From Promethearchaeota archaeon (GTDB taxonomy: Archaea > Asgardarchaeota > Thorarchaeia > Thorarchaeales > Thorarchaeaceae), in NCBI GenBank assembly GCA_014728035.1, contig WJMJ01000132.1, forward strand, positions 1 to 14,930: a stretch of DNA of 14,930 nucleotides, read 5' to 3'. Position numbers and translations under genes: made by a program. Positions 1 through 14,930 of the stretch are shown here, piece after piece (position 1 is the stretch's first letter; every line of letters begins with the position of its first letter). The notes under the pieces were generated by a model, which saw nothing but the letters and a program-made list of their open reading frames with translations, had not been told where the DNA came from and ran no database searches.

Positions 1-32
1 CTACTGAACCATTCCTTCTCAATATGTCGGTC

Positions 33-219
33 GTCACAGAAGCTAATTCCACATTATGGAGATTGAAAGTGATCCACATCAGCACCGAGTTCCAGGAGAA
101 TGTCTGGTCACAAAAGCTAATTCCACATTATGGAGATTGAAAGGCTATGTCGCTAAGGACATAGTACATTTCTTCAAATCGTGTTACAAAAGCTAATTCC
201 AGATTGTGGAGATTGAAAG
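33..219 (+). CRISPR. CRISPR array 1, trailer end (3 clear 37-nt repeats; probably continues upstream of the window)
   Basis: Repeats at 33-69 (gtcacagaagctaattccacattatggagattgaaag), 107-143 and 183-219. Spacers are 70-106 (37 nt) and 144-182 (39 nt), with a probable partial spacer at 1-32. The 3' ATTGAAAG end gives + orientation. Internal hairpin is TCCA-N5-TGGA. Confidence 0.97.
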
Positions 220-254
220 AGTGATAGTTAGCACGTGAAATCTTCTAACTCATC

Positions 255-291
255 TCTACAAATACTATTGCGCTTTGTGTAACGATTGCGG
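255..291 (+). repeat. Possible heavily eroded terminal repeat of array 1
   Basis: One spacer length (35 nt) after repeat 3, tctacaaatactattgcgctttgtgtaacgattgcgg keeps TACAAA, CTA, TTGTG and GATTG in repeat order. The alignment needs gaps and the hairpin is lost. Confidence 0.4.
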
Positions 292-397
292 TTTCAGAAT
301 AGATGATTGTGATAGAAGATACAAGAATGAAAGATTAATAACACTGAAAGCCTTGTTATTCATGAAGATTTCTTTAATCCCATAGGGAGGGAGTAGT

Positions 398-1420
398 TTG
401 CATACAATTGTCTTAGAGGACTTTGGATATTTCTTAGGTAAAAAAGGTGAACGATTAGTAGTAAAGAAAAAGGGAAAGGTTAAAGCTGAATTTCCAGTTT
501 CTGATGTTGAACGTGTGATTATCTCGTCGTCTGGAGCTAGTGTTAGTTCAGCAGCACTCTATTTAGCAGTAGACAATAGAGTTCCAGTGGTTTTTACTTA
601 TTCCTCCGGTCATCCTTTCGCTTTTGTGATGCCAACTCTGGGGCATGGAACGGTACTAACAAGAAGAGGACAATATCTGAATGCGGAAAATGAAACTGGG
701 CTTCACCTCGCAAAATCCTTTGTAGAGGGAAAATTGCTAAACCAACGGATACTTTTGAAGATGTGGGCAAAGAATCGTACAAGAACTGATCCTGATGTGT
801 CCGATTTTCTTTTTGAAGCGAGTGAACATGTTTATGCGGCAATTGATCAGGTTAAGGCAGTTTCAGGTAAGCTATCATCAATTACCCGTCTTGAGATAAT
901 GAATATCGAGGGAAGAGCCTCATCCCATTATTGGTCTGGGATTGCTCAGATTTTAACTTCCAATCTTGGTTTTTCGGGAAGAAAAACAAAAGGGGCTAAG
1001 GATCCATTCAATATGATCTTGAATTATGGCTATGGAATACTTTATTCTGAGGTCTGGTCCGCAGTAACCAAGGCAGGTCTAGACCCCTATGCAGGATTTC
1101 TTCACGTGGACCGTCCAGGAAGACCCTCTCTTGTTCTCGATGTGATTGAAGAGTTCAGGCAACAGATAGTTGACCGTACTGTTGTTGGGATGGCGACAAA
1201 GAATATGTTTAATCCTGATAGTCTGATTGAGGATTCTCTTTTATCAAAAGGAACTCGAACTAAGATAGTTGAAGGAGTTGTATCAAGGTTATCTGATAGA
1301 GTTCAATTTGCTGGAAAACAGATTCCTCTATCCAGTGTTATTATGAAACAAGCATGGGCTGTGGCAAAACTAGTTAGAGGAGATGCTAGTCAGTATACCC
1401 CATTCTCATTGAGGTGGTAG
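398..1420 (+). CDS. cas1: CRISPR-associated integrase Cas1
   Basis: 340 aa, TTG start after GGGAGGGAG. Cas1 motifs are EGRASSHYW, DPFNMILNYGYGILY, GLDPYAGFLH and SLVLDVIEEFR (catalytic E/H/D-E). Confidence 0.98.
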   Translation: MHTIVLEDFGYFLGKKGERLVVKKKGKVKAEFPVSDVERVIISSSGASVSSAALYLAVDNRVPVVFTYSSGHPFAFVMPTLGHGTVLTRRGQYLNAENETGLHLAKSFVEGKLLNQRILLKMWAKNRTRTDPDVSDFLFEASEHVYAAIDQVKAVSGKLSSITRLEIMNIEGRASSHYWSGIAQILTSNLGFSGRKTKGAKDPFNMILNYGYGILYSEVWSAVTKAGLDPYAGFLHVDRPGRPSLVLDVIEEFRQQIVDRTVVGMATKNMFNPDSLIEDSLLSKGTRTKIVEGVVSRLSDRVQFAGKQIPLSSVIMKQAWAVAKLVRGDASQYTPFSLRW

Positions 1421-1713
1421 ACCTGATTTACATCGTGGTTTATGACATCACAAATGACAATCTGCGGAATAAGATAAGTGAATGTCTAAAAAATTACGGA
1501 TTAGAGCGAATACAATATAGTGGTTTCTTCGGCGACTTAACTAAGTTTGGTTTAAAATCGCTTCAAGTAGACTTGAAAAAGCTAATGAACGACAGGGACG
1601 AAACTGATTCGGTCATCATCATCCCTGTTTGCAATTCTTGTTTTAAAAATAAGGTAGTGATTGGTAAGGCGTGGGTTGTGGAGGAAAAGGAGTTTGAAGT
1701 ATCGGTCTTCTGA
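1414..1713 (+). CDS. cas2: CRISPR-associated protein Cas2
   Basis: 99 aa with IVVYDITND, GLERIQYSGFFG and a C-terminal CxxC typical of archaeal Cas2. GTG start overlaps the cas1 end. Confidence 0.97.
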   Translation: MVDLIYIVVYDITNDNLRNKISECLKNYGLERIQYSGFFGDLTKFGLKSLQVDLKKLMNDRDETDSVIIIPVCNSCFKNKVVIGKAWVVEEKEFEVSVF

Positions 1714-2326
1714 GTCAACAGATATTTCGGAAAAATATCTAGCACCAACAGATGTGAAACAATATGTCTTCTGTCCCAGAGTTACATATTTCACACGGGT
1801 GATGCGCCTAAAACCAGTTATGGGAAGTCAACAAGAGGCAGGAAAAAAGACACATAAGAAGCTGACTGATTTAGAGAAAAGAAGACAGAGTGTTCTGAAG
1901 TCTGACTTGAATCTGGATATTAGGAACAAAGAATTTGAGATATCGCTGAAATGTCACGAACTGGAAATGCATGGAAGATTGGATATGTTATTGGAAACAA
2001 AAGATGGCGAGTTTATTCCTGTTGAATTCAAATCGATGATAAGTAGAAAAGGACAACTACATGTCGATCACAAATATCAATTAGTTACACTATCCCTGTT
2101 ACTTGAATGCAATCTGGGCTGTATTGTTAGAAGAGGCATCATTCATTATATTCCTGAGGAGCTTACTATCCAATTTCCGATTAGCCATTCTATTAAGCGT
2201 AGGACCAAATTTGTAATGAAGAGTATCCAAAATATGATACTTTCAGGAAACATCCCTGATGGACGCCGGGAGTGTAGTATGCAAAAGGTAGGATGTGGTT
2301 TTGCAGACTATTGCAGAGACCTCTAA
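1694..2326 (+). CDS. cas4: CRISPR-associated exonuclease Cas4 (start uncertain: TTG 1694 preferred, ORF open from 1661)
   Basis: YVFCPR, RecB-like GRLD...PVEFK and three C-terminal Cys (CSMQKVGCGFADYC) for the Fe-S cluster. Follows cas1-cas2. Confidence 0.95.
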   Translation: MKYRSSESTDISEKYLAPTDVKQYVFCPRVTYFTRVMRLKPVMGSQQEAGKKTHKKLTDLEKRRQSVLKSDLNLDIRNKEFEISLKCHELEMHGRLDMLLETKDGEFIPVEFKSMISRKGQLHVDHKYQLVTLSLLLECNLGCIVRRGIIHYIPEELTIQFPISHSIKRRTKFVMKSIQNMILSGNIPDGRRECSMQKVGCGFADYCRDL

Positions 2327-2458
2327 GGAGTACAAAATTAATCCTTTTCACAACACTAGTTCAATTACCATACTGTTTAGCAATAGGTCGCGCGCATCAA
2401 AAGTTCCTAGAATGCACTAGAATGCACTTGGAGAGCATATTATCCAGTGAGTTCATTC

Positions 2459-2466
2459 TTTATATA
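2459..2466 (+). promoter_or_regulatory. Candidate archaeal TATA box for the effector operon
   Basis: TTTATATA in the ~190-nt gap, about 50 nt upstream of the cas10d start. Confidence 0.55.
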
Positions 2467-2516
2467 TTGAATTTTGCAAATAAGATACGTATGAGATTGT
2501 CCCAAAGGTGAATCTG

Positions 2517-5174
2517 ATGACTGCAAAGACTACCCCAAAATTTGACACCCTTCTTGATGCACTCATAAAACAAGCAATGAAAGAGGATTGGCAATATAAA
2601 TATGCTAAATTCGCTAAAACTGGTTCTCAATCTCTACTGGTACACGCAGTTAATGTGTTTTCAGTTGCTAAAATCCTAGGATCTGAAGTATTTGGGTACG
2701 AAGATGACGAACTTCTGATTTTATCTCTTGGAGGATTCATGCATGATTTTCAAAAATCTTATGATATATGGCAAGATTCTGCTTTGGCATTTATGAAGGG
2801 GGAACGAAAGGGACTTAATTTCGAGCATGATTCGGGTACTGATGATGATTTAGAGCGACTCAAGACATTCCTAATGAATGCACAAAACAATTTATCGAAT
2901 GATATACTTGATATTGATTTAGTCGAGCTTGCACCCCGTATTCTTAATCTTCTTGTGTATACTCATGATTCACCAAACCGTGCAGTTGCTAGTAAGAGAA
3001 AATCACAGGTTGGACCGATTGATGCAGTTGCAAAGATTATTCGACTATCAGATAGTATTGCAAGTATCAAGACGCCTCAGGAGATTCTAGGACGGAAACG
3101 AGATCCCGATTTACCGGAATTGGATAGTTTCGAGTTTGAGTATCACGAGCTAACCGTCATTCGAGGTGTAGTGTCAAGTTTTCTCAATCAAGCAGTTATC
3201 AACTTACTTGGAGATCATGGATATATACCACTTCTCTATTTTGGCAATGGTGCAGTGTATCTGAGAAATTCCAGTTCAGAAATTATTACAGATTCAAAAA
3301 AGCAATTAATGGATTTAATTAATCAGGAGTTCGAACGTTTCCAAGAATCTAATACATACCAGATTGGAATGACTAATGCAGTCATCGGTCCAATAACACA
3401 AACTAAGTGGCCTGCTATTCAAGCTGTGAGAAAAGAAGACATTCCAATTCTTATTGAATTTCTTCTCAATAGCTATGCCCGTCAGAAAAAGACAAGAGAC
3501 GGTAAATCATATTATGAAAGCCAAATCAAGAAAGGGCCTGAATACAAGAAAGCACTAGATGACTTTGTAAAGAATTCTGGGTCTGAGAGAGATGCAATAA
3601 TTGCCGATATGCGTTCGGATTTTGCGTTATTGTGCTATGTTGCTGATTTTCTAAAGGTCTATTCAAATTATATCGATGATTCAGATATAGCTAAGGAATA
3701 CAACCAAGATGTAAAACTGTGGCTGGAGAAGTATTTGTACCCATGGGCTCTGGATGATCTAAGTGATATTGGAAACACAACTCCCGCAATTAGAAGGGCT
3801 GAAGTAATATCTCAGCTTTGGAAGTTTGATTCTGATAGACTACATATGAAAAAAGATCGCAGGAATATCATTGCAAACGGCTCGATATCGCTACTTAAAC
3901 GAGTTGCGGAAAAATATAAACAATATATTCCCTCATTACTCTCATTGAGGGTAAGGGAAACTCTTCTCAGCGATATTGGATATATCCCTGTTCCAATTCT
4001 ATCACACGATGATATTGTAGAGATTTCAGATGCAACATATGAGCGATATAGAGAGGGTAAAGACCAGACTAAAAGAGTATGTCATCTCTGTAGTGCTGAA
4101 TCATTTGATACCGCGGTAGCAGCACTATTTGGAGAGGGTTCTGAGAAATTCACCAACTGGTTACCTGCTGGAAGTAAGATTGGTGGTCAACGAAAAGCTC
4201 TGGTGTGTGAACTTTGTCTTTCTGAGGCTAGGCTTCGAGCCTTCTTTTTCCCTGATGCTCCCGCAATGTCCATGATTGTTATTCCTGATCTCAGTCTTTC
4301 ACCAGATATGTCGAAGCGTTGGTCTTATGCTGTTGAAGAGTTCTTGAGGTCTCAAAGCCTTGGGCTAGGAAAAGGAAAAGTCTGGAATATGACCAGAGTA
4401 TTTGAAAAACTTGCAAACGGAGAAAACTTTCATAATCCATTCCAGATTTCCCAAATTTTCCGTCCCACTTCAACAAGTGTGAAGAAACTTACAAAATATC
4501 TAAAGCAGCAAAGACAAAATGCGGATGGTCTGAGATTCAAAGTTATCAGACAAGAACCAATTGAGATAACCCATGAGAGTCTGGCAAGAGCTCATCTCAA
4601 GGGTGATATTAGGATAAATCCGCGACATTTGAAGGATTATGAACCTCCATCCACAGATGAGAGTATTTGTTACCAGACCCCCAGTCATATGTTCTATTTC
4701 TTCCGAAATCCACCTCGTACGGACGATGAGGAATCTAACAGTAGTATTGCATTAAGATTGTATTTACTGTCCCTGATAATTGCTGATGTTTATCACGCAA
4801 AAGTTGTAGTTACAGAAGGGTTCGAGTCGATTGTATCACTTGACTTCAGAGGCACGGTGAAAATACCCCTTCCACCCCCAGCTCAAGATGCATTGCGAAA
4901 AGTGGGAGTTGAACAGGTTACTTTCAGACATGAATTGGCACTTGCTCAACAACGACTTGCTGCTTTGACATTAATCGCATTATATTACGTTTCAAAATTA
5001 GGTAAGGATCGATTGCTTCGGTTAGCTAACATGAATCGAGGGGCTATTCTACGACGAGCACAGATGGAGGGTGGGAGCAAAATGGGGCAGACGGATAAAT
5101 TCAGATTAATCGGATATCTTGAGCAGCTTCCTATCGCTGCTGGAGATAATCAACCATCTAACAAAGGAGAATGA
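2517..5174 (+). CDS. cas10d: Type I-D large subunit Cas10d (Csc3) with N-terminal HD nuclease; appears to lack the C-terminal small-subunit domain
   Basis: HD motifs SLLVH, FMHDFQK, YTHD and IRLSD. Degenerate palm PLLYFGNGAVYL with no GGDD. Zn finger CHLC...VCELC. ATG 2517 follows an AGGTGA RBS, so it is preferred over GTG 2508. Lies upstream of csc2/csc1. Confidence 0.92.
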   Translation: MTAKTTPKFDTLLDALIKQAMKEDWQYKYAKFAKTGSQSLLVHAVNVFSVAKILGSEVFGYEDDELLILSLGGFMHDFQKSYDIWQDSALAFMKGERKGLNFEHDSGTDDDLERLKTFLMNAQNNLSNDILDIDLVELAPRILNLLVYTHDSPNRAVASKRKSQVGPIDAVAKIIRLSDSIASIKTPQEILGRKRDPDLPELDSFEFEYHELTVIRGVVSSFLNQAVINLLGDHGYIPLLYFGNGAVYLRNSSSEIITDSKKQLMDLINQEFERFQESNTYQIGMTNAVIGPITQTKWPAIQAVRKEDIPILIEFLLNSYARQKKTRDGKSYYESQIKKGPEYKKALDDFVKNSGSERDAIIADMRSDFALLCYVADFLKVYSNYIDDSDIAKEYNQDVKLWLEKYLYPWALDDLSDIGNTTPAIRRAEVISQLWKFDSDRLHMKKDRRNIIANGSISLLKRVAEKYKQYIPSLLSLRVRETLLSDIGYIPVPILSHDDIVEISDATYERYREGKDQTKRVCHLCSAESFDTAVAALFGEGSEKFTNWLPAGSKIGGQRKALVCELCLSEARLRAFFFPDAPAMSMIVIPDLSLSPDMSKRWSYAVEEFLRSQSLGLGKGKVWNMTRVFEKLANGENFHNPFQISQIFRPTSTSVKKLTKYLKQQRQNADGLRFKVIRQEPIEITHESLARAHLKGDIRINPRHLKDYEPPSTDESICYQTPSHMFYFFRNPPRTDDEESNSSIALRLYLLSLIIADVYHAKVVVTEGFESIVSLDFRGTVKIPLPPPAQDALRKVGVEQVTFRHELALAQQRLAALTLIALYYVSKLGKDRLLRLANMNRGAILRRAQMEGGSKMGQTDKFRLIGYLEQLPIAAGDNQPSNKGE

Positions 5175-5180
5175 ATTACA

Positions 5181-5798
5181 ATGATAATAAGAATGGAAAA
5201 AGAAGAAGAAAAAACAGACCCTGAAGAGGTCAAGAAGGTCCGAGGCAAGGCAGCTGAAGCTCTCTTGGAGTATCTTGGAACTTATCGTCCTGAGAAACCT
5301 CTCACCGATTCGAAACACTCTCTTATGGGTCCTGTTGGAAAACTATTAACACGAGTCACAACCACTGGAGAAGTCAATTGGGATGCTGTGAAGGGCTATG
5401 TCCTCAATCTGCATAAGAATCAACAAGCTCCCCGTGGAGTTTCTGCGGAAGCTATTGAAAGATTGGATGATGCTATTGCAGAACTTGCAAAACTGAAGGA
5501 TATTCTTCCGCCTACAAAATGGCTTAAGATGATTGAGGACCTTGATGATGAGGTCTTCTTTGGTGCTTTTAGGGACAAATTATACGGCCAAAGAAAGCAT
5601 GTGACAGAGAAGTTCCAGGAATGGCTAAAGAACAAGTATACTGACATCTCAGAAATTAATGAATTGATCGACGAACAGGAGTATACATCATTTGAGGATA
5701 TGGATCCTTTTTCGACTCCTGATGACTTGGAAGATGTCATTGACGAATTTTGGAAACACTACAAAGCAGAGAAAAAGAAGAAAAAAGAGGGTAAGTAA
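5181..5798 (+). CDS. cas11: Cas11d-like small subunit, separately encoded, with a C-terminal extension
   Basis: 205 aa, helical and charged, between cas10d and cas7. It has its own AGGAG RBS (5165-5169) and shares the cas10d frame. YRPEKPLTDSKHSLMGPVGKLL resembles the Y..S.H.h..P...L motif I recall from the Cas10d C-terminal/Cas11d domain. Confidence 0.72.
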   Translation: MIIRMEKEEEKTDPEEVKKVRGKAAEALLEYLGTYRPEKPLTDSKHSLMGPVGKLLTRVTTTGEVNWDAVKGYVLNLHKNQQAPRGVSAEAIERLDDAIAELAKLKDILPPTKWLKMIEDLDDEVFFGAFRDKLYGQRKHVTEKFQEWLKNKYTDISEINELIDEQEYTSFEDMDPFSTPDDLEDVIDEFWKHYKAEKKKKKEGK

Positions 5799-5800
5799 AA

Positions 5801-6727
5801 ATGAGCAAAAAGGCAAAACTACCATCAAGTTTCAAGAAACTGGAAGACTATTTTGTTGACAAAATCTCTCCACTGCTTGATGCAAAAACAATACAGATTC
5901 TATTGGTACGGCAGACCCATGACTTCACAGTCTTACGCACTGAGGAGAGCAGAGAACTCAACACTGTTGTTGTTCCAGAGAATATCGAATCATCGAAGCC
6001 TACCGTGAAAGTGGCATTTCTAGCTTCTAAACAAAAAGCTGTCGAGTCTAGAATGTTTTCTCGACTACTAAAGACGGTAAAAGAACATGATTGTTATCTC
6101 AAAGATAATCTATGTATGAATTGTCCACGTTGCGCTCTCTTCGGGGCTGTAAATACTGGTGGTGGACGTGACTATAATATCCGTCATAGAGTGGAATATT
6201 CTACGGCCTTCTCAATAGAGAAATATGAGGATTTGTTGGAAACTCTCACCTTCAATGCTATTGATGAGGCAGATCAAACAACTGGTCAGGCTTTGAATAT
6301 GACCCATAATGTTCGACCGCTAGCTAACTTTCCGTCAATCATCACTCTTACATCTGTGACATGGCAGGAGTTCTCTCTACTTCTCAAAACACTTCTCGCA
6401 TCAAAATCATATGGTGCTGAAACCAGAGTAAAGGGCGATGTGAGAAACATAATCCTTGGAATAGTGGGTGGATATGAAGAGGTATTAACTTCCCTTGAAT
6501 ACAGTCTTGAACTAACTGCTGACTGGGAGGAAGACCTACCAAAAACTACTGAGAAGATCCTTGAGAAATACAAAGGTTTGGCAGCCACACGTGGAAATAT
6601 TACTATTCTCACAGCTGAAGAAACTGCAGCCTTGATTGAAGCAGTGCAAGATATGGAGCTAGATGAATCATTTGCAAAATCAATGTTTGATCAGGTAGAT
6701 GATTTCGTCAAAGTAGCTAAGGGGTGA
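5801..6727 (+). CDS. cas7: Type I-D backbone protein Cas7 (Csc2)
   Basis: LLVRQTHDFTVLRTE, SKQKAVE, Zn-binding CYLKDNLCMNCPRCALFGAV, TFNAIDE, FPSIITL and YGAETR are characteristic of Csc2. Confidence 0.95.
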   Translation: MSKKAKLPSSFKKLEDYFVDKISPLLDAKTIQILLVRQTHDFTVLRTEESRELNTVVVPENIESSKPTVKVAFLASKQKAVESRMFSRLLKTVKEHDCYLKDNLCMNCPRCALFGAVNTGGGRDYNIRHRVEYSTAFSIEKYEDLLETLTFNAIDEADQTTGQALNMTHNVRPLANFPSIITLTSVTWQEFSLLLKTLLASKSYGAETRVKGDVRNIILGIVGGYEEVLTSLEYSLELTADWEEDLPKTTEKILEKYKGLAATRGNITILTAEETAALIEAVQDMELDESFAKSMFDQVDDFVKVAKG

Positions 6728-6733
6728 TATGAC

Positions 6734-7501
6734 ATGTCTGAACCACTACTACATTTGGTGACTATTACAAGTCACGATTATCTATTCTATGCTAGTCAAG
6801 ACTATGGAGCAACTGCACGGCCTCATGAGGTCATTGGCAATTATGCTCTCATGTATGCATTGAACCGAGATATTCCGGATGTCAGACGAGTGGTTTCAGG
6901 CACTACTCCTCATTACGAAGAAGACCTACCAAAAATGCGGATTTACGCAACACCTGCAGCACCATCAGCACATTTTCCTTACGCTCGTTCAAGAAGTGGG
7001 AATAATTCTCGCTGGCTTGATCAACAAATCACAATAGGGTATGAAAAACTAGCTATGTGGCGGGAGGGGGACCTTACCTCCATCACATGGAATAGCATTG
7101 GGTCTTCATTATTGGATGTGATGACTAGAGATCGAGCAAATTTACCTAAAGTTGGAAAATATTACAAATTCCCTCCATTAAGAAGTTTTTATTTCTACTG
7201 TGTAGGAGAGTCAATACCTTCCCTGTTCCGACTGGGTAAGAAATACACTCCAATTCGAGCAAACTCCATGCAGCTGGAAGCAACTCTTAAAGATGGAAAA
7301 TTCTCTCCAACTTGTCCTGTTAATGTACAAGATTTGCCTGACAGCACGCAGATTCTGAGAGGAAGTCTTCTCACTGTTTTACCAGCTCCCTTATTGCTGG
7401 AGTCAGAACTACAAGGGTCATATCTTGAGGCATATGACCAATTTGGTTATCCTCATAGGATACCTCAACCCAATACAGAACAGTTCGTGAACTCATGGTG
7501 A
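6734..7501 (+). CDS. cas5: Type I-D Cas5 (Csc1)
   Basis: HDYLFYAS, IGNYALMYAL, PHYEEDL..IYATPA and FRLGKK match Csc1. GGTGA RBS overlaps the cas7 stop. Confidence 0.93.
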   Translation: MSEPLLHLVTITSHDYLFYASQDYGATARPHEVIGNYALMYALNRDIPDVRRVVSGTTPHYEEDLPKMRIYATPAAPSAHFPYARSRSGNNSRWLDQQITIGYEKLAMWREGDLTSITWNSIGSSLLDVMTRDRANLPKVGKYYKFPPLRSFYFYCVGESIPSLFRLGKKYTPIRANSMQLEATLKDGKFSPTCPVNVQDLPDSTQILRGSLLTVLPAPLLLESELQGSYLEAYDQFGYPHRIPQPNTEQFVNSW

Positions 7502-7508
7502 ATTATTA

Positions 7509-9590
7509 ATGCATCAAGAACGACGAACCACAGTACGTGATGCTTTTGTGCGATTTAGTGATGTGCATGATGGTCAATTACGTCTTTATGAACACCAATT
7601 AGATTTAGTAGAAGCTGATGGAGACCCTCTTGTTCTTGATGCACCAACTGGTTCCGGAAAAACTCTAGCTGCTTTGAAACGAGTCATTAAGAGAAAAACT
7701 CCAGCTATTTTTGTCTATCCTACTAATACGCTAGTAAAGAATCAAGTAGAGTCTATGATAGACTTGCTTACTAAAATGAATAAAACTGTAAATCTTATAG
7801 AGCGAGATTCCTCTGGTAGTTTCACTTTCTCTGATGATAAGGATGCAATCGATCTTATCCATTTGACAGGAGAGAGTCTTGAAACGTTAGCTGGTGGCGG
7901 ATCGAAAGGCTCTGCTATAGATACCATTCTCACCCATTCAAAAGAGAGCAATCGCATGAGGATTCTACTAACCAATCCTGATATGATATATCTTGCATTT
8001 GCTGGTTTCTATTGGAGACATGGCAGAATTATGGAACAGATTGATTCATTCCGAGTAATTGTATTGGATGAATTTCATCTGTACTCTGGACCAACTCTCG
8101 CTAGATTAGTGTATCTGCTAAATGACCTACGAGGAAATCCTATGTTTCCATCGTTCGAGACCATTTTTCTTAGCGCTACACATGGTGATACTCTAGAATT
8201 ACTTCAATCTAGCTATCCAAATCTTTGTATTGTACGAACAATACCTCTAGATGCTCCTGAAAACGAAACCAAGATGATTAGACACCAGACTGAATGCACT
8301 TTACGAATCCGAAATCGAATAATGTACGGAAATGAGGATGTTGATGAAGCTGCTCAAGCAATCCTTGAATTATATAATGAAGATTCTTCAAATAATGATA
8401 ACAAAATCAAGGTATTGGGAGTATTTTCATCGGTCATATTTGCCGTAAAAGTTGCGAGTCGAGTTAGAACTATCCTAGAAAATGAGGGTAGACTTTCACC
8501 TAGTATTGTAAAAGAAATCCATGGGTTAGTTCCAAATTCGGAACGAGTGAATATAGAACACATGGAAAATGGAATTCTAATTGGAACTTCTGCTGTAGAG
8601 GTAGGTATCGACTTTAATGTACCTTATTTAGTAATGGAATCTCATGATATTGCTTCGTTTTTGCAACGTTTTGGACGGGGTGGTAGACATAAACCTTGCA
8701 AATCTGTATTGTACATTCCCCGTACACTAGCTGATAATTTAGCTGCGAAGTCCTCATGGTCATTTGCAGATTTCTCATCTACTGTTCATGAAGCATTAGC
8801 AGAGCTTCCATCTTACGCTGAATTCGTCTGTAGTCATGAAGCAAGAGATGTTCTCTTAGCTATGGCATTGAGTGCCAGCAGAAATCCTTTCTCGAGATCC
8901 AAGGGGAAGTATCAATTCGATTATGATACTGCTGTTGAATATTTTCAAATACTGATAGAGAGCAATAGCCAACTTCAGATGGGAACAACCAAATTAACAG
9001 ACAATATTGGTTCAATGGATAAGGATGATATTCTGTGCGATATGGAACGATGGGTTATTACCACCCTGGCAGAAAATGGATTTATTCGCGGCACTATGAA
9101 TTCAGTCTTGTCAAAAATTCCCGTATCTGGAACTAATGGTAATTCAGTCTATGCGGAAATTGACATTTTTGATATATTCAAGGTAACTGGCTATTTGGAA
9201 ACGGCTAGCTCACATTGGAAATCAATTCCTCCTAGATTAAAAAGAAGATATCAGAAAGACTCGCCTCTGTTTGTGATTGAAAATTTTGAACGGGGTTATC
9301 ATCCTACTGTGAAAGTTGCTAATGATGCGTGTCATAGATATATGGTTGGAGTATATACTAAACCAGAAATCACTCTTACATGTGGAAATCTCATTATGGA
9401 CGAAGTTTTGTCCAAATTACTTGAGAAGAGGAATTTAGCTTTCTACTGGTATGGGTTAAACCCAGGAACTGATTTTAGGATTCCTCGCTTTCCTTCAGAG
9501 AGCAGAACTGGTGGATTAGTTATTGGTGATTGGGCATTTGTTGCAAAATATCTTGTTGCGAAGAAAAAAAAGGAGAATGAACGGCTATGA
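7509..9590 (+). CDS. cas3: Cas3' SF2 helicase without HD domain (type I-D)
   Basis: APTGSGKT, YPTNTL, LTNPD, DEFH, LSAT, TSAVEVGIDF and QRFGRGGRH. No N-terminal HD domain, consistent with the HD being on Cas10d. Confidence 0.96.
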   Translation: MHQERRTTVRDAFVRFSDVHDGQLRLYEHQLDLVEADGDPLVLDAPTGSGKTLAALKRVIKRKTPAIFVYPTNTLVKNQVESMIDLLTKMNKTVNLIERDSSGSFTFSDDKDAIDLIHLTGESLETLAGGGSKGSAIDTILTHSKESNRMRILLTNPDMIYLAFAGFYWRHGRIMEQIDSFRVIVLDEFHLYSGPTLARLVYLLNDLRGNPMFPSFETIFLSATHGDTLELLQSSYPNLCIVRTIPLDAPENETKMIRHQTECTLRIRNRIMYGNEDVDEAAQAILELYNEDSSNNDNKIKVLGVFSSVIFAVKVASRVRTILENEGRLSPSIVKEIHGLVPNSERVNIEHMENGILIGTSAVEVGIDFNVPYLVMESHDIASFLQRFGRGGRHKPCKSVLYIPRTLADNLAAKSSWSFADFSSTVHEALAELPSYAEFVCSHEARDVLLAMALSASRNPFSRSKGKYQFDYDTAVEYFQILIESNSQLQMGTTKLTDNIGSMDKDDILCDMERWVITTLAENGFIRGTMNSVLSKIPVSGTNGNSVYAEIDIFDIFKVTGYLETASSHWKSIPPRLKRRYQKDSPLFVIENFERGYHPTVKVANDACHRYMVGVYTKPEITLTCGNLIMDEVLSKLLEKRNLAFYWYGLNPGTDFRIPRFPSESRTGGLVIGDWAFVAKYLVAKKKKENERL

Positions 9591-10474
9591 TTACCTTAGG
9601 TTTTCGACTGCGAAGCCCCTTTTCGGGTGTAATGGATTATACTGGTGTAGGACTCAGAGCTGCTTTTTTGAACTTGCTAAAAAACTATGACCACGAGCTG
9701 AGCGGCAAAGTACACGACTCGAGTGCGGTTAGGTCCTACTCTCTGACCCCTTTCCCGTGTAACAATAGATTCCAGACATTCTTTGATGAAGGTGAGGAAT
9801 ACAATTTTACCGTAAATCTATTCGATGTGGGTAAATACCGAGATGTTCTACGGCATATAGCTACGAGTCAAAATAGGTCGTTACGTCTCCATCATCAAAG
9901 GTTTCCAATACTGGGAATTGATTATAGCACAAGGAACCCAGAACGAATGATGGAGGATTGGGCTTCACCATTATCCACCTATGATAAATCTGAAATACAT
10001 GTTTCAATGAAATTCCAGACTCCAACACAGCTATCACATTTTGGTAGTGATAAGGCATATCTTTTACCAGATCCAGAGAAGATATTCTCTGGTTTGCTTA
10101 AAGTGTGGAATACCATGCAGGATGCTACCGTGGTGGAGCGTACGAGTTCGTACAGAGATTGGATAGCGAGCAATGTCTATATTCGCAAACACAACATCCT
10201 TACTCAAGAGGTTTCGCTTGGAAGAAAAAGAAAGTTGATTGGTTTCGTTGGTACACTTGTATTTTCAATTAGGAATAGGAGTAGTCCTTTCCTACCACTG
10301 ACTATTGGACTACTGCGGTTTGCAGAATATTGTAATATTGGTAAGAATAGGACAGCAGGTTTTGGCAGAGTGTCTGTTAGAATGACAATCGATGCAGAAA
10401 AAGAAAAAGAGGGCGAACAAGATAATGTACATACTTCCCGAGGACGTGAAGCGGAGACTACTTCGAAGATATAG
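9587..10474 (+). CDS. cas6: crRNA-processing endoribonuclease Cas6
   Basis: VHD...YSLTP, FQTPT, LPDPEKIF, IGFVG and the C-terminal Gly-rich loop IGKNRTAGFGRV. ATGA overlap with cas3. Confidence 0.95.
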   Translation: MITLGFRLRSPFSGVMDYTGVGLRAAFLNLLKNYDHELSGKVHDSSAVRSYSLTPFPCNNRFQTFFDEGEEYNFTVNLFDVGKYRDVLRHIATSQNRSLRLHHQRFPILGIDYSTRNPERMMEDWASPLSTYDKSEIHVSMKFQTPTQLSHFGSDKAYLLPDPEKIFSGLLKVWNTMQDATVVERTSSYRDWIASNVYIRKHNILTQEVSLGRKRKLIGFVGTLVFSIRNRSSPFLPLTIGLLRFAEYCNIGKNRTAGFGRVSVRMTIDAEKEKEGEQDNVHTSRGREAETTSKI

Positions 10475-11369
10475 ACGTAGATCACGAGAGATTGTGGTCG
10501 ATGAGAGATTCAGAGGATGGGCATGGGAGATTCCACCTTTGGACCCCCCGTATGACTACCAACTACCCCTCAGTGTTATTGCATCTCGTTATTGTGAATC
10601 CATGCGCGATATCTACCTAAGTTATGTGGAAAAAGTGAAAAGAAAGACTACTGCGAAGATGATTGCTGGAGGGCTCTACCATTGGACCGTTTCCACGCTA
10701 ATCGAACATGCCAAAAAGGCTCTCTACTCGAAAGGATTCACTTCTGGTAATGAACTTGGCATCCATCTCACACAACTCCGCGATCAGGTAATACAATCGA
10801 AACTGGATAGTACTAACCCTCCTCAGATTCGCGACCGTGGGGGTGCTTGGAATCCCAGACTGATACAGAAAAATATGAACTGGTTATGGGACTTTGAAAT
10901 AAATCAGATTGTTGCTGCGGTTGAAACTGTCAAATCGACTCAGCCATATATCGGACTTGATGCTCTTGTTTCGAGTGCCATTCCTGTTGTAGTGGAGCAG
11001 CGATTAGATGGAAGGAATCTTGGATTGAGTGGGCATCTTAGCGCTGATGCTTTTGGAGTCGAAGGTGTTGTTCTTGATATTAAGACTGGAGAAAAAAGGT
11101 ATTTTCATCGAATAGCTGTGACAGGATATGCTTTGGTTATAGAAAGTATCCACGAGTATCCTGTAGACATCGGATGCATTGTCTATTGCTGGTTTGGTGA
11201 TAAACTCCCTCCTAGAATAAAATATGATGTCTATACCATTGACGAGCCACTAAGACAAGAATTCATTGAACTGCGTGATCAAGCAATGAAAATTATTGAA
11301 GACTATCGTGACCCTGGTCTACCTAGAAAATGTTATGAAGACTGTCCATTTTGGGATGATTGTCATTAA
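10425..11369 (+). CDS. csa1: Cas4-family nuclease of the Csa1 (type I-A-associated) group
   Basis: The N-terminus MYILPE...ERFRGWAWEIPPLDP...SRYCESMRDIYL is a Csa1 signature. Also LDGRNLGLSGHLSADA, DIKTG, GYALVIES and terminal CYEDCPFWDDC. ATG 10425 is preferred over 10392 by family resemblance. Confidence 0.9.
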   Translation: MYILPEDVKRRLLRRYRRRSREIVVDERFRGWAWEIPPLDPPYDYQLPLSVIASRYCESMRDIYLSYVEKVKRKTTAKMIAGGLYHWTVSTLIEHAKKALYSKGFTSGNELGIHLTQLRDQVIQSKLDSTNPPQIRDRGGAWNPRLIQKNMNWLWDFEINQIVAAVETVKSTQPYIGLDALVSSAIPVVVEQRLDGRNLGLSGHLSADAFGVEGVVLDIKTGEKRYFHRIAVTGYALVIESIHEYPVDIGCIVYCWFGDKLPPRIKYDVYTIDEPLRQEFIELRDQAMKIIEDYRDPGLPRKCYEDCPFWDDCH

Positions 11370-11413
11370 AAAAAGGCCTTGACATTCGACAGGTCAATGA
11401 AGCATGTCAAGGC
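11368..11413 (-). terminator. Stem-loop followed by a T-tract on the minus strand
   Basis: Perfect 10-bp inverted repeat GCCTTGACAT (11376-11385) / ATGTCAAGGC (11404-11413), preceded on + by an A7 run (T7 on the minus strand). It may also end the cas operon transcript. Confidence 0.5.
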
Positions 11414-11659
11414 TGCTTAAACTAGGTTCTGACAAATTGCCAGATGACAACTAATAGTCAGCTATCACCAGGGCCAGTCAGGGTCTTTTGGGGGCCATCC
11501 ACTACAATTCATGGCTATCGAATTATAGAAGATTAGCAAAGTAGTAGAACTAACACGCTGCAAGTTGCATAGTGTGAATATAGTTGCAGCCAGGGATACA
11601 ACTTGCATGCTGGAAGTGAACCTTTTATGTCGGGGAGCTTCTTGATGATATGATTAGCA

Positions 11660-12316
11660 TTGACGGAACACCTGCAAATTGCTACACTGGGTATCCACGC
11701 AAACGAACGCGTTCTACATGTTGCACTAAAAATGGGAGTTGACCATGTGGCTCTGATTTTTACTGAGAAAAACGAACAGAGTATGAGAGAAATTAGAGCA
11801 AAGCTAGTGGAATACAAGATTCCCGTTGAGGAAATCAAAGTATCTCCATGGACCTATGATAAAGTTCTTGCAGACATTTTAGAAATTGTTGCCAAGTTTC
11901 CTGATTACGAGATCTCGTTCAACGTTTCTTGTGGTACTCGCGTCATGACATCTGCGGCCCAGACTGCTGCTTTGTTTATTGGATCTCCTGCATATTATGT
12001 AAGTGAAACAGATGAATCTGTAATTGGAGAGATTAAATGTGCAGAACCAATCACTCTCTCTCAACTTTCAGATGAAAAGAAAAGAGTACTCGATAAATTG
12101 GTAGAAGCAGGAGGTTGTGTCTATCCTCAGAAAGAACTGGGAACTCGTGCAGATCTAAGTGTTACCTCAATCTCTCGCCTTCTCGGAAAACTTGAACGGT
12201 CGAATTTTATAGTTCGTAAACGGATTGGAGGACCATATCAAGTATGCATAACAGACCTAGGACGGGCAATGCTAAAAATTAAACAATGTAGAAAAGATCG
12301 TTTCTGGAGCGACTAA
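11660..12316 (+). CDS. csa3: Csa3-like CARF + winged-HTH transcriptional regulator
   Basis: CARF motif I IATLG and motif II FNVSCGTRVMT. C-terminal wHTH LSDEKKRVLDKL...QKELG...SVTSISRLLGKLERSNFI...ITDLGR. TTG start. Confidence 0.82.
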   Translation: MTEHLQIATLGIHANERVLHVALKMGVDHVALIFTEKNEQSMREIRAKLVEYKIPVEEIKVSPWTYDKVLADILEIVAKFPDYEISFNVSCGTRVMTSAAQTAALFIGSPAYYVSETDESVIGEIKCAEPITLSQLSDEKKRVLDKLVEAGGCVYPQKELGTRADLSVTSISRLLGKLERSNFIVRKRIGGPYQVCITDLGRAMLKIKQCRKDRFWSD

Positions 12317-12321
12317 ATTAG

Positions 12322-13932
12322 ATGGCATTAACTGAATTATCCAAGAGCGTCAATGAATCATGGATGAAATACGCAAAAATAATCGAGAAAGACTACTCTC
12401 TGAAGCCGTCTAGTGCTCCAAAAATTACACATATAGCTGATATCAAGACCTTATTCTCTATCAAAAATACCTCGGCTGAAGTCACATTACTTCTGTCTGA
12501 AAGAATCTTGCAAAATCAGCCCGGATTTTTTGATGGTATAATAGCAAAAGCCTGTTTCTCTACACTGTTTTCAAAGGATGCAGTATGTCCTGAATGCATT
12601 GAAGATTTATCCTTTGAATTTGCAAGACAACACTTGCCAAAAACGATCAAAAATGATTGGCTTGCTTTTTGGGACCAATTTGCACCACTTAGAGAATTAT
12701 CCAAAGTCTTAGTCCACCAGCCAACCAGATCGTACCCCTTCCTGTACAAGATGATAGGTAAGAGAGGTCTTATTGAAATAACACGAGAAATTGTGAAAAT
12801 GGATGCTCATGATATTCAATTGAAACTTGCTGACTATCTGGTGTTTTTTGAAAAGAAGGCTAATTCATTCTTTGTTACACCCGACAAAACCGAATTGCGG
12901 ATTATCAATCATCATATAGCAAATCCTGATAGTGAAAACAAGGCACTCGCAAAACAGATTGGTATCACTGCTGAATATTTATCCAAGAAGAAGCAGGAAC
13001 TTAAGGAGCGATTGGTACTTCGAGAATTTTATCATGCATCCTTTTCTCGTATTGGCATTCGTATGTTCCATGTTCTACTAGATTCGGGACCGAATGAAGA
13101 AGACCCATTCTGGCTAGTGAAAGATTGTCCTTTTCTCTTTTCATATAGACGGGTTCTCAGTGGAGATTGGAGTGCATTTGCAACATTTTGCGTTCCTGAC
13201 AATTCCCGCAGTATTCATAGTCTGTCTACATTCCAAGATTCAAGTGATAGATGGCGATACAATATAGAAATGATGGAGATAGTGTCTTCTGGTTCTGTGA
13301 CGTGTTTGGAATACTACAACCCATCAAGGAGAGAATGGGATATACCATGGAACCTGCTAGATATCGAGTTAAAGAAGATAATAGAACATAAATGGGCAAG
13401 CTCATTCCCAAAGATAGACACCCCATATTCACGAACAAAGATACCTCTTGATGAACTAGATTTGAAGATACTTGATGCCTCTCGACTTGGTATAACCGCT
13501 ATCGGAGATATTCGAGAATTACTGCAAGTTGGACAAGAGCGAATTGCTAACAAGAGAAAGAAGTTAGTCGAAGAGAAATTGTTAATCCATACTTATGAGG
13601 TGCATAATGTTGGACTCGTGGAACATGTCTTTGTTTCCTGTGATAACCAAGATATCGCCCTTGCCTTGACCGGATGGATTCAAAGATTACCTCGAAGTAT
13701 TGCTGCTTTTGGCATCAATAATCGGCTATTTTTGCAGATTCGGCTACCTAAAGGAGGTAGCCACGCGTTTGCTCGTTTATTAGGTGACTATCGCCAACAT
13801 GCCCGACTCGGCCTGTTAGATGAAAAACATCAGGGTGACTGGGGATTTCCAATCCATCTCTGGGATGAAGAAAAACAGGATTGGAATTGTCCCTCTGATC
13901 ACATCGAAACATGGCTAGAAAGAATCGGATAG
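12322..13932 (+). CDS. Large putative transcription regulator with two Lrp/AsnC-like wHTH modules
   Basis: 536 aa. HTH1 is DKTELRIINHHIANPDSENKALAKQIGITAEYLSKKKQELKE and HTH2 is LDELDLKILDASRLGITAIGDIRELLQVGQERIANKRKKLVEE. Each is followed by an alpha/beta RAM-like segment. N-terminal region has CPEC. Confidence 0.7.
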   Translation: MALTELSKSVNESWMKYAKIIEKDYSLKPSSAPKITHIADIKTLFSIKNTSAEVTLLLSERILQNQPGFFDGIIAKACFSTLFSKDAVCPECIEDLSFEFARQHLPKTIKNDWLAFWDQFAPLRELSKVLVHQPTRSYPFLYKMIGKRGLIEITREIVKMDAHDIQLKLADYLVFFEKKANSFFVTPDKTELRIINHHIANPDSENKALAKQIGITAEYLSKKKQELKERLVLREFYHASFSRIGIRMFHVLLDSGPNEEDPFWLVKDCPFLFSYRRVLSGDWSAFATFCVPDNSRSIHSLSTFQDSSDRWRYNIEMMEIVSSGSVTCLEYYNPSRREWDIPWNLLDIELKKIIEHKWASSFPKIDTPYSRTKIPLDELDLKILDASRLGITAIGDIRELLQVGQERIANKRKKLVEEKLLIHTYEVHNVGLVEHVFVSCDNQDIALALTGWIQRLPRSIAAFGINNRLFLQIRLPKGGSHAFARLLGDYRQHARLGLLDEKHQGDWGFPIHLWDEEKQDWNCPSDHIETWLERIG

Positions 13933-13940
13933 TCTTTTTT
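13933..13940 (+). terminator. Oligo-T archaeal terminator candidate
   Basis: TCTTTTTT immediately after the TAG of the 536-aa gene. Confidence 0.45.
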
Positions 13941-14067
13941 CTAGACGTGGATACTGTTTTGTGGTGGTCCTTATAAAGGACCTTGCAGAAAATCGACCAC
14001 CACATCGACCCTCCGGAAGAAGAGTTATGAGGACTTCTTTCCTCTAATATAGTAGGTTTCAAGCCGG
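13941..14067 (+). promoter_or_regulatory. Putative leader/promoter of array 2
   Basis: Non-coding stretch directly 5' of the best-conserved repeat. Contains TTATAAA (13971-13977) inside inverted repeats. Confidence 0.65.
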
Positions 14068-14330
14068 GTTACAAAAGCTAATTCCAGATTATGGAGATTG
14101 AAAGATGTAATGGTTGTTCTCGTAGTCTTTCAGAAAGTTGTACGTCATAGAAGCTAATTCCACATTATGGAGATCGGAATGCCAATCCATCAACGATTGG
14201 GAAAAAACACCATCATGAAGTCACTGAATCTAATTCCAAAATGTGGAATCAAAAGATTTGATTAAAGTTATTCCAGATATCATTATCAAGATACTTGTAG
14301 GAATCTATTCTATATTATAGAGATTGGATA
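14068..14330 (+). CRISPR. CRISPR mini-array 2: 4 progressively degenerate repeats, 3 spacers of 39 nt
   Basis: Repeats are 14068-14104 (gttacaaaagctaattccagattatggagattgaaag), 14144-14180, 14220-14255 and approximately 14295-14330 (most degenerate). Spacers are 14105-14143, 14181-14219 and 14256-14294. Same repeat family as array 1. Confidence 0.92.
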
Positions 14331-14439
14331 TGTATTGAGTTAGAAAAAAGGGTGATGCATAAGTTAGAATGCTCTATTTACACTATTTCAGAAAATGTTA
14401 TAATTGACAAAGTCCTAGTTCGAGTGGGTTTCGAGGATA

Positions 14440-14930
14440 TTGAGTGCAAGGAATATAATTGAATCATTTGTTAACGATACTTCTATTATTGAGATAATCG
14501 CAGATGGGGACCTGGATGGTATTCTTGCCTCTGGCTTATTATCATCTCATTTGAAAGAACAAGGCATAGAAGTTCGAGTTGTATTTCCTCCTTCTAGAGA
14601 TTTAGAAGGATTAATTGTATCAAATGCCATTCTCATTGAATTACCGCCATCCAAAGGCCTTGTTTATTCTGGCAAGAATATCCTAATAGACCATCATGGC
14701 ACCATTAATGGAGTCGCACTATATAACAATGATCAGATTCAGAATCTAGCTAATCTCGATATTGAGGATTGTATTGCAAGTACAATTGTGTCTTCAATAT
14801 TCAATTTGCGTAAGAATCTTTCTAAAAAAGGTCAAGAACTACTCAAGTCAATTGTTCAAATTGATATGGGAACTTATGATACTCAATTTACAAGAAATTT
14901 CCATCGTGCATACCAAATGAATGTTACAAA
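14440..14930 (+). CDS. DHH-family phosphoesterase, 5' part (runs off the window; absent from the ORF track)
   Basis: Manual translation from TTG 14440 gives MSARNIIESFVNDTSIIEIIADGDLDGILASG...ILIELP...NILIDHHG..., with DxD motif I and DHH motif III. The frame is open to the window end. Confidence 0.85.
   Translation, partial: MSARNIIESFVNDTSIIEIIADGDLDGILASGLLSSHLKEQGIEVRVVFPPSRDLEGLIVSNAILIELPPSKGLVYSGKNILIDHHGTINGVALYNNDQIQNLANLDIEDCIASTIVSSIFNLRKNLSKKGQELLKSIVQIDMGTYDTQFTRNFHRAYQMNVT

Follow-up and report, generated by a model that had tools for sequence, protein, structure and literature searches.

Background

Cas11d, the small subunit of type I-D Cascade, is stated for all I-D lineages to be translated from an internal start in cas10d (PMC10212523; bioRxiv 10.1101/2020.04.18.045682), and the fused Cas11 domain has been proposed to nucleate filament assembly (bioRxiv 10.1101/2020.04.18.045682, discussion). 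In the 14,930-nt stretch of Promethearchaeota DNA analysed here (contig WJMJ01000132.1, positions 1 to 14,930; hereafter the window), however, cas10d ends at a TGA and is followed in the same frame by a separate ORF of 205 aa. A preliminary description of this DNA read the ORF as a Cas11d-type subunit, proposed that partial readthrough of the in-frame UGA would restore a fusion, and regarded the architecture as distinct and undescribed. The locus raises the questions of what the 205-aa protein is, whether the stop codon before it matters, and whether the split is new.

The type I-D operon

The features of the window, all on the forward strand, are as follows.

33-219, +, CRISPR array 1, three 37-nt repeats, truncated where the contig begins
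398-1420, +, cas1 (PF01867, E 1e-75; TIGR00287)
1414-1713, +, cas2 (PF09827, E 2e-18)
1661-2326, +, cas4 (TIGR00372, 80 bits)
2517-5174, +, cas10d, 885 aa (PADLOC PDLC01192, E 4e-27; AF2; VIA)
5034-5147, +, final thumb helices of Cas10d (residues 840-877), which include the invariant RGAILRR at 841-847; predicted Cas11d docking surface
5165-5169, +, Shine-Dalgarno-like AGGAG inside the last cas10d codons, 11 nt 5' of ATG 5181
5172-5174, +, cas10d stop, TGA
5181-5798, +, very probable cas11d, 205 aa, a small-subunit gene separate from cas10d (PDLC01194; AF2; VIA)
5220-5585, +, Cas11 helical core, residues 14-135 (structure comparison)
5535-5594, +, segment of Cas11d (residues 119-138) that holds the invariant acidic patch E119 D120 D122 D123 E124 F127 and is predicted to touch the Cas10d thumb
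5586-5795, +, C-terminal extension, residues 136-205, not in canonical Cas11d, resembling a GH42 segment
5801-6727, +, cas7d (csc2) (TIGR03157, 113 bits, cut-off 38)
6734-7501, +, cas5d (csc1) (TIGR03159, 79.9 bits, cut-off 41.4)
7509-9590, +, cas3' helicase (TIGR03158, 139.8 bits, cut-off 69.1)
9587-10474, +, cas6 (PF10040, E 1e-17)
10392-11369, +, csa1, Cas4-like (PF06023, E 2.5e-75)
14068-14256, +, CRISPR array 2, degenerate repeats

The marks of type I-D are present, namely a Cas10d with a Cas3''-type HD domain and degenerate cyclase/palm, Csc2, Csc1 and a separate Cas3' helicase. Absent is a trait of characterised I-D systems, the internal in-frame translation of Cas11d inside cas10d, which to our knowledge does not belong to the formal subtype definition. 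The window system is no new kind of system.

The 205-aa protein

The AF2 model of the 205-aa protein (pLDDT 87.6) is small and all-helical. When it was compared with 48,161 PDB chains in an unbiased VIA structure search, the top three ranks were all I-D Cas11d chains or domains: 6thh_C (residues 675-844, Z 8.2, rmsd 3.1, 115 aligned), the Cas11d chain 7sba_J (residues 1-146, Z 8.0, rmsd 3.8, 122 aligned) and 7sbb_I (residues 825-970, Z 7.6), although a Z of about 8 is within the range that helical bundles can reach by chance and is modest alone. The next ranks were C-terminal domains of Cmr2/Csm1 and the Cas11 domain of Cas7-11. The Cas11 fold was called on the top-ranked matches together with profile and gene context. 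The PADLOC profile PDLC01194 ('Cas11d; CAS-I-D; effector_SS') matched residues 8-201 of 205 on positions 8-200 of 202 with E 1.1e-23, a full-length match, but one to a profile only. Pfam and NCBIfam hold no model for the protein and gave a sub-threshold GH42 match alone (E 0.009); a sequence search of the PDB found nothing, and Foldseek returned no match to the model at E <= 0.001, with Cas11-type rows among the weak ones. A sequence tie to the fused form came from profile A1, which hhalign placed on an 886-aa Cas10d of the same archaeal family, over residues 762-880 (E 1.1e-4), the two having S-x-H-[AS]-[IL]-[LM]-G-P in common. Small subunits are commonly described as basic; the net charge of the 205-aa protein is -9 overall and -2 in the core. 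The ORF is, with high probability, an ordinary gene of its own for Cas11d, the small subunit of type I-D Cascade, as the preliminary description had supposed.

The large subunit

Cas10d (AF2 pLDDT 83.6) consists of an N-terminal HD nuclease of the Cas3'' type, a degenerate cyclase/palm, a Zn finger and a thumb. H43, H76-D77, H150-D151 and Cys 522, 525, 564 and 567 are invariant in its family, and TIGR03174 scored 53 bits, under the cut-off of 60. With the whole model VIA gave 7sbb_I (Z 22.7), 7sba_I (Z 19.5) and 6yes_B (Z 18.5). Model residues 5-884 aligned with residues 17-836 (7sbb_I) and 12-829 of Synechocystis Cas10d, and the model aligned with residues 14-719 (6yes_B) and 10-725 of the S. 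islandicus protein. Synechocystis Cas11d begins at M830 (bioRxiv 10.1101/2020.04.18.045682) and the S. islandicus Cas11 domain at residue 720 (PMC7689449). Because the alignment stops where the relatives' Cas11 domains begin, the window Cas10d is without a Cas11 domain; past its last helix there are about 17 poorly modelled residues and nothing more. All Cas11d copies must, in consequence, come from the separate gene, and on this point the earlier reading holds. A cryptic paralogous Cas11 domain in Cas10d was also considered and ruled out, hhalign having found no similarity between Cas11d and split Cas10d alignments.

The gene junction and the stand-alone family

The 3' end of cas10d reads AAA GGA GAA TGA, followed by ATT ACA and by the ATG at 5181, which confirms the stop, the downstream ORF and the AGGAG as first reported. 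The ORF list gives 2508-5174 (888 aa from GTG) and 5181-5798 (205 aa), but cas10d likely starts at ATG 2517, which has AGGTGA ahead of it and yields an 885-aa product identical to an entry in the protein collection searched. Both ORFs share a frame because 5181 minus 2517 is 2664, or 888 x 3. Six bases separate the cas10d stop from the cas11d ATG, and relatives carry GAGGTGA at the position equivalent to the AGGAG. With its start 6 nt past the stop and a Shine-Dalgarno-like element of its own, cas11d is probably translationally coupled to cas10d.

A survey of homologous loci found the same boundary throughout: close stand-alone homologues of Cas11d form about 50 clusters (195-217 aa), and 30 clusters of Cas10d homologues (875-891 aa) end as the window protein does. 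A profile search returned 93 clusters at 50% identity, all stand-alone (97-247 aa), and no Cas11d match within a long Cas10d-like protein; the exceptions among long proteins were two tail-only matches in non-Cas proteins of about 650 aa. A search for longer, fused relatives gave no protein of 360-2000 aa matching the 205-aa query. The family is spread over Thor-, Hel- and Jordarchaeia and Methanosarcinales, and the split form, found in 13 of 18 strong I-D loci of Asgard archaea, is the majority there. Distant members keep the slot cas10d-X-csc2-csc1-cas3', and distant stand-alone members match PDLC01194 (E 6e-64, 1.5e-44 and 7e-22); those of Jordarchaeia are a core of 144-150 aa without the tail. 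Relatives whose Cas10d is as little as 41% identical keep the gene boundary, as do members in other archaeal classes. On these sequence comparisons the split layout is an old, conserved I-D sub-lineage of Asgard archaea and Methanosarcinales, and not a recent mutation.

The full-length match to PDLC01194 also means that a stand-alone Cas11d family of about 200 aa has already been profiled (PADLOC-DB 2.0.0), while NCBI names its members 'hypothetical protein' or, wrongly, 'beta-galactosidase', a mislabelling that matters for annotation. Since the layout is old, common in Asgard archaea and already profiled, the window operon is an example of a known arrangement and no fresh split, and the claim of a distinct, undescribed architecture gives way before a widespread family with a curated 202-position profile. 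That claim was to fall if stand-alone cas11d proved already common in described archaeal I-D loci. This is so in part: the split is frequent among sequenced loci of archaeal I-D and has been profiled, yet the literature searched yielded no paper describing the split I-D architecture or a stand-alone cas11d.

Predicted contact and assembly

A predicted complex of Cas10d and Cas11d scored 0.71 against 0.00 for the best of three controls. This mark was attained by 58 of the 80 solved complexes and by 2 of the 110 mismatched pairs, figures that apply only approximately because author-made alignments were used; the score may also reflect likeness to solved I-D structures in which a Cas11 domain is packed on the thumb. 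At least 88% of contacts agreed between runs, with partner pLDDT of at least 82. The predicted interface joins Cas10d 840-877 with Cas11d 18-25, 43-45, 119-138 and 177, and both sides fall on invariant stretches.

We propose that the minor ('belly') filament would be built wholly of free Cas11d copies. The first of them would bind, without a covalent link, to the helices at the end of the Cas10d thumb, its acidic EDxDDE patch facing the basic RGAILRR. The docked copy would be a stand-in for the covalently attached Cas11 domain of Synechocystis and Sulfolobus, and the filament would then stabilise the R-loop and the non-target strand, as it does in the I-D Cascades already known.

Alternative explanations

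The in-frame TGA invites the reading that cas10d has suffered a recent fission or nonsense mutation and that partial UGA readthrough yields a Cas10d-Cas11d fusion of about 1090 aa which nucleates the minor filament. The two ORFs are indeed separated by one TGA and two sense codons, and a fused Cas11 domain has been put forward as filament nucleator (bioRxiv 10.1101/2020.04.18.045682). In the window and seven related loci, however, cas10d ends in either TAG or TGA, and cas11d follows in frame 0 at three loci, in +2 at three and in +1 at one, the remaining locus being too short for a frame call; in-frame junctions at three of eight loci are what chance predicts. One relative (L004) has two in-frame stops at the junction, in another (L005) the genes overlap, and the boundary persists over the range of identity and archaeal classes given above. 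Readthrough is not a conserved feature, because both stop codon and frame vary among the eight loci; as a conserved mechanism it is largely refuted by this comparison, on which the in-frame TGA of the window is a coincidence that carries no information, and we hold it very unlikely that a readthrough fusion operates here. The same data bear on the idea that the TGA arose in sequencing or assembly and that the true gene is a fused cas10d of the canonical kind, within which cas11d starts. The contig does come from a metagenome-assembled genome with an estimated contamination of 8.5%, but the two-gene structure recurs in all close homologues, which come from independent assemblies, and the searches described above met no long fused match, which leaves an error almost no credence.

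The 205-aa protein might also be an accessory factor, either a regulator or an adaptor acting through its GH42-like tail, that has only the bundle shape in common with Cas11. Its acidity and unusual 70-aa tail would fit such a role, and Z values near 8 are not decisive for helical bundles, the unrelated bestrophin reaching Z 7.5. Against this, the gene always lies between cas10d and cas7d, in the place of the missing Cas11 domain; the protein matches the Cas11d profile, resembles in sequence the Cas11 region of a fused relative and is predicted, with clean controls, to bind the thumb of Cas10d; and the Jordarchaeia members do without the tail. We regard an accessory role as improbable and retain the identification as Cas11d.

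Comparison with known systems

Cas11d of Synechocystis sp. PCC 6803 (7SBA chain J) shares with the window protein the fold, the placement with respect to the Cas10d thumb boundary and the operon neighbours cas10d and cas7d. The motif S-x-H-A-[IL]-[LM]-x-P near the N-terminus is also in common, in an hhalign of A1 against Synechocystis Cas10d that was weak (E 0.07), yet at the right place. There, however, Cas11d is translated in frame from inside the gene for a 975-aa Cas10d, which retains the domain covalently, whereas in the window it has a separate gene and Cas10d is without that domain; the Synechocystis protein is 146 aa long against 205 aa, the window protein having the extra tail of about 70 aa. 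The best structural match is the Cas11 domain of Sulfolobus islandicus (6YES/6THH, residues 720-847, Z 9.0 and 8.2; PMC7689449), which differs in being fused, an alternative start giving rise to a 14-kDa small subunit, and is about 11% identical to the window protein.

Two fused Thorarchaeal loci (G321, or L013, and G325, or L014) belong to the same archaeal family as the window and have its operon order. The C-terminal 120 aa of their 886-888-aa Cas10d match Cas11d profiles, but Cas11 is fused, with an internal ATG-ATG behind an AAGGAAGTGGAT Shine-Dalgarno-like element, and the cores of their Cas10d share just 23% identity with that of the window. In type III systems Csm2/Cmr5 (Cas11) is a separate gene directly after cas10, in the order large subunit-cas11-cas7-cas5 as in the window, with some structural likeness to its Cas11d (8bmw_E, Z 7.1; 2zop_C, Z 4.5); the system type is different, with no Cas3' and with a permuted HD and active cyclase in Cas10.

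On a Halococcus dombrowskii plasmid (NZ_CP095009) cas10d is split into 833 and 145 aa at the Cas11 boundary, the small gene standing directly before cas7d, and RefSeq labels both pieces cas10d. The 145-aa piece shares 56% identity with the fused Cas10d of Halorussus over residues 827-965 of the latter and matches the C-terminal ends of Cas10d profiles, not PDLC01194; hhalign of A1 against it found no similarity. This split is an independent event and apparently a recent one.

Direction of change

Fused forms with an internal start coexist with split forms in one archaeal family, which offers a natural comparison for the role of the covalent Cas11 domain in Cascade assembly. A Csc2 tree implies at least three changes of state between fused and split, and the direction in the main clade depends on where the root is placed. 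The tree excludes L007, whose Csc2 is truncated, and a Rubrobacter locus with a 149-aa ORF in the same slot and no PADLOC match, left out because its large subunit is filed as Cas8b. It is plausible that fission took place where the internal start used to be. A more tentative alternative, which we consider possible but rather doubtful, is that the split clade did not arise by fission and has retained an ancestral, type III-like order cas10 - cas11 - cas7 - cas5 from before the fusion of cas11d to cas10d. If that were true, the clade would be the missing pre-fusion intermediate in the proposed transition from type III to type I-D, and the charge-complementary RGAILRR/EDxDDE dock of the predicted complex, together with the GH42-like tail, could replace covalent tethering.

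The internal-start rule of the I-D literature does not hold in this large archaeal sub-lineage, and for reconstitution or genome editing the cas11d of the window can be expressed simply as its own gene.

Organization of the locus

The window is a complete contig of 14,930 bp from an archaeal genome bin (4.3 Mb, 173 contigs) and holds one cas operon with an array of 37-nt repeats on either side.

Features of the window
33-219, CRISPR array, 37-nt repeats
398-1420, cas1
1414-1713, cas2
1661-2326, cas4
2293-2511, 72-aa ORF between cas4 and cas10d
2517-5174, cas10d
5181-5798, 205-aa ORF
5801-6727, cas7d/csc2
6734-7501, cas5d/csc1
7509-9590, cas3'
9587-10474, cas6
10392-11369, csa1
3' of csa1, ahead of the 536-aa ORF, csa3-like gene
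12322-13932, 536-aa ORF after the csa3-like gene
14068-14256, CRISPR array, 37-nt repeats

The ATG at 2517, with AGGTGA ahead of it, is most likely the start of cas10d. The stop of the 72-aa ORF, for which Pfam and NCBIfam gave no match, overlaps the cas10d SD. Two Cas4-family nucleases, cas4 and csa1, are present, and there is an 83-nt overlap between the end of cas6 and csa1. A Pfam search with the 536-aa ORF was without a match.

The cas10d/small-ORF junction

The window reads AAA GGA GAA TGA ATT ACA ATG at the junction and bears out the anatomy given in the preliminary description: a cas10d stop (5172-5174), the ATG of the 205-aa ORF (5181) in the same reading frame, and AGGAG at 5165-5169. 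The weight then placed on an in-frame UGA and its possible readthrough does not survive a comparison of the window with seven related loci, in which cas10d terminates in TAG or TGA, the small ORF starts anywhere between an overlap and about 20 nt further on, and the relative frame is 0 in the window, L001 and L004, +2 in L002, L003 and L005, and +1 in L006. In-frame placement in three of eight loci matches the chance expectation, and so readthrough to a fusion is not a conserved feature. Two in-frame stops occur in L004, and in L005 the start of the small ORF overlaps the cas10d stop. An SD-like GAGGTGA stands before the earliest small-ORF start codon, TTG or ATG, from which the product would begin M-[VI]-I-R-M. 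The gene boundary itself is common to about 50 clusters of 195-217-aa homologues of the 205-aa protein and to 30 clusters of 875-891-aa Cas10d homologues (identity down to 41%); judged by this shared boundary, the TGA of the window is genuine and not an error.

The 205-aa protein and Cas10d

Searches of Pfam, NCBIfam and PDB sequences with the 205-aa protein gave nothing useful. Its AlphaFold2 model, built with 27 homologues, is confident and all-helical (pLDDT 87.6), and Foldseek returned insignificant E-values for it. When the model was compared exhaustively with 48,161 representative PDB chains using VIA-align, ranks 1-3 were all type I-D entries: it aligned with residues 675-844 of Cas10d from S. 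islandicus (Z 8.2, rmsd 3.1, 115 aligned), with free Synechocystis Cas11d (7sba_J residues 1-146; Z 8.0, rmsd 3.8, 122 aligned) and with the Cas11 domain that Synechocystis Cas10d carries (7sbb_I residues 825-970; Z 7.6). Lower in the ranking were Cmr2 and Csm1, matched by their C-terminal domains, and Cas7-11, matched by its Cas11 domain. For helical bundles a Z of about 8 is a modest value, and the Cas11 fold was therefore not assigned on Z alone. The PADLOC profile PDLC01194 ("Cas11d; CAS-I-D; effector_SS", 202 positions) matches residues 8-201 with an E-value of 1.1e-23, and in hhalign the homologue profile matches a fused Cas10d of 886 aa in the same archaeal family over residues 762-880 (E 1.1e-4), with which it has the motif S-x-H-[AS]-[IL]-[LM]-G-P in common. 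A weak alignment places this motif at Synechocystis Cas10d 835-881, right behind the internal start M830.

The 885-aa Cas10d model (pLDDT 83.6, pTM 0.82) was aligned with Synechocystis Cas10d (residues 5-884 to 17-836, Z 22.7; 2-880 to 12-829, Z 19.5) and with S. islandicus Cas10d (14-719, Z 18.5; 10-725, Z 17.7). Synechocystis Cas11d starts at M830 (bioRxiv 10.1101/2020.04.18.045682), and S. islandicus Cas10d has its thumb at 624-719, followed by the Cas11 domain at 720-847 (PMC7689449). Because both alignments stop where Cas11d begins, Cas10d of the window ends exactly at the thumb/Cas11 boundary; after its last helix there are only about 17 residues, poorly modelled, and profile-profile comparison found no hidden similarity of Cas10d to the 205-aa protein. 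As the preliminary description had it, the small protein is a Cas11d by its top structural matches and its PADLOC profile, and Cas10d has no small-subunit domain of its own by the model alignments and the profile comparison.

With Cas10d residues 480-885 and Cas11d each entered as an alignment, the predicted complex scored 0.71 (runs 0.70-0.72; best control 0.00). Of solved complexes 58 in 80 attained this mark, against 2 in 110 for mismatched pairs; these counts apply here approximately, the alignments entered being our own. Contact agreement between runs was at least 88%, and partner pLDDT at least 82. The predicted interface joins Cas10d 840-877 to Cas11d 18-25, 43-45, 119-138 and 177, and coincides with the best-conserved stretches of both proteins, including the invariant Cas10d RGAILRR (841-847) and Cas11d E119, D120, D122, D123, E124 and F127. 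The prediction supports, rather than demonstrates, binding of the two proteins; the pass may partly reflect likeness to solved I-D structures, which pack the Cas11 domain on the thumb. Gene structure, fold, profile membership, the missing Cas10d domain and conservation are shown here, and we infer that free Cas11d would form the entire minor filament and that its first copy would dock on the Cas10d thumb.

Distribution of stand-alone Cas11d

Among 1.84 billion representative proteins, searching by profile found 93 stand-alone Cas11d clusters at 50% identity. All are small (97-247 aa) and fall into two groups by size, near 147 aa and at 200-220 aa; in no cluster did the profile match inside a long Cas10d. 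Distant members keep the same slot, cas10d(884-1001 aa)-X-csc2-csc1-cas3'. Members with a named source belong to Thorarchaeota, Helarchaeota, Jordarchaeum and Methanosarcinales, and are annotated as 'hypothetical protein' or, wrongly, 'beta-galactosidase'. Csc2 (E < 1e-30) was found in 18 of 400 Asgard species genomes; a small Cas11d-like ORF lies directly upstream of csc2 in 13 of these, and a long ORF reaches csc2 in the other five.

The published accounts consulted describe I-D operons without a cas11 gene, and internal translation of Cas11d is reported as conserved in all lineages (e.g. PMC10212523; bioRxiv 10.1101/2020.04.18.045682). Our literature search for a split I-D architecture found no paper describing one. 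PADLOC-DB 2.0.0 holds a curated full-length I-D Cas11d profile, and so the family is already known to classification resources. Given this profile, the 93 clusters and the 13 split Asgard genomes, the locus is not the distinct new architecture proposed in the preliminary description; the gene, at 54-62% identity to its nearest relatives, is an addition to a known, under-described family.

Fused relatives and direction of change

Fused Cas10d-Cas11d marks another I-D subfamily (loci L013 and L014; genomes G336, G387 and G389), which shares its archaeal family with the split one and extends to the genus of the window, where G336 is of the long-ORF type. In two of the five long-ORF genomes, G321 (L013 6322-8982, -) and G325 (L014 3523-6189, +), the Cas11d profile falls within the final 120 aa of a Cas10d of 886-888 aa. 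In the G321 gene an SD-like AAGGAAGTGGAT precedes an internal ATG-ATG, which is the published internal-start layout.

A maximum-likelihood tree of Csc2 was built from 26 rows, leaving out L007 (truncated) and L020 (Rubrobacter variant). The main split group (14 rows) forms one well-supported clade (98/99), its sister is the Thorarchaeal fused group together with the split locus of G118, and the fused systems of bacteria and haloarchaea fall outside both. The tree requires at least three changes between split and fused states. G118 (L037 1033-1422) has a 129-aa Cas11d-like ORF (PDLC01194 E 8e-4) between a long ORF and csc2 and may have changed state independently, as a third case. The position of the root decides between a split in the main clade and fusion in the others. 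For a Halococcus dombrowskii plasmid (NZ_CP095009; L016 2973-5908) the annotation divides cas10d into CDS of 833 and 145 aa that overlap by 4 nt, and the smaller one shares 56% identity with the fused Halorussus Cas10d of 966 aa over residues 827-965. The pattern points to a recent and independent fission at the boundary of Cas11, or else to a frameshift; such a fission would mean that cas10d breaks readily at the internal start, without deciding how the old split clade arose.

C-terminal tail and other loci

Cas11d residues 136-205 (window 5586-5795) make up a C-terminal tail of about 70 aa that is missing from canonical Cas11d; Jordarchaeia members (144-150 aa) are without it. The tail resembles a segment of GH42 glycosidases (1kwk_A residues 151-228, Z 5.8, rmsd 2.1, 69 aligned, 19% identity; also 5xb7_A, Z 5.9, and 3tts_A, Z 5.6), with a weak sequence match to PF02449 (E 0.009), and two proteins of about 650 aa were matched in the profile search by the tail alone. 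The misnaming of members as 'beta-galactosidase' in NCBI records is probably due to this likeness.

A Rubrobacter radiotolerans plasmid (L020 2583-6161) has a 149-aa ORF, without a match among PADLOC profiles, between a 688-aa large subunit classed by PADLOC as Cas8b of I-B and a cas7d so named by RefSeq. PDLC01194 also matches in the control genome of Thermotoga maritima, which to our knowledge is not an I-D carrier. In the I-D locus of a Clostridium botulinum plasmid (NZ_CP063961; L019 2069-4977) a gene for a 188-aa 'HD domain-containing protein' precedes a short 765-aa cas10d, and here it appears to be the HD nuclease, not Cas11, that has split off.
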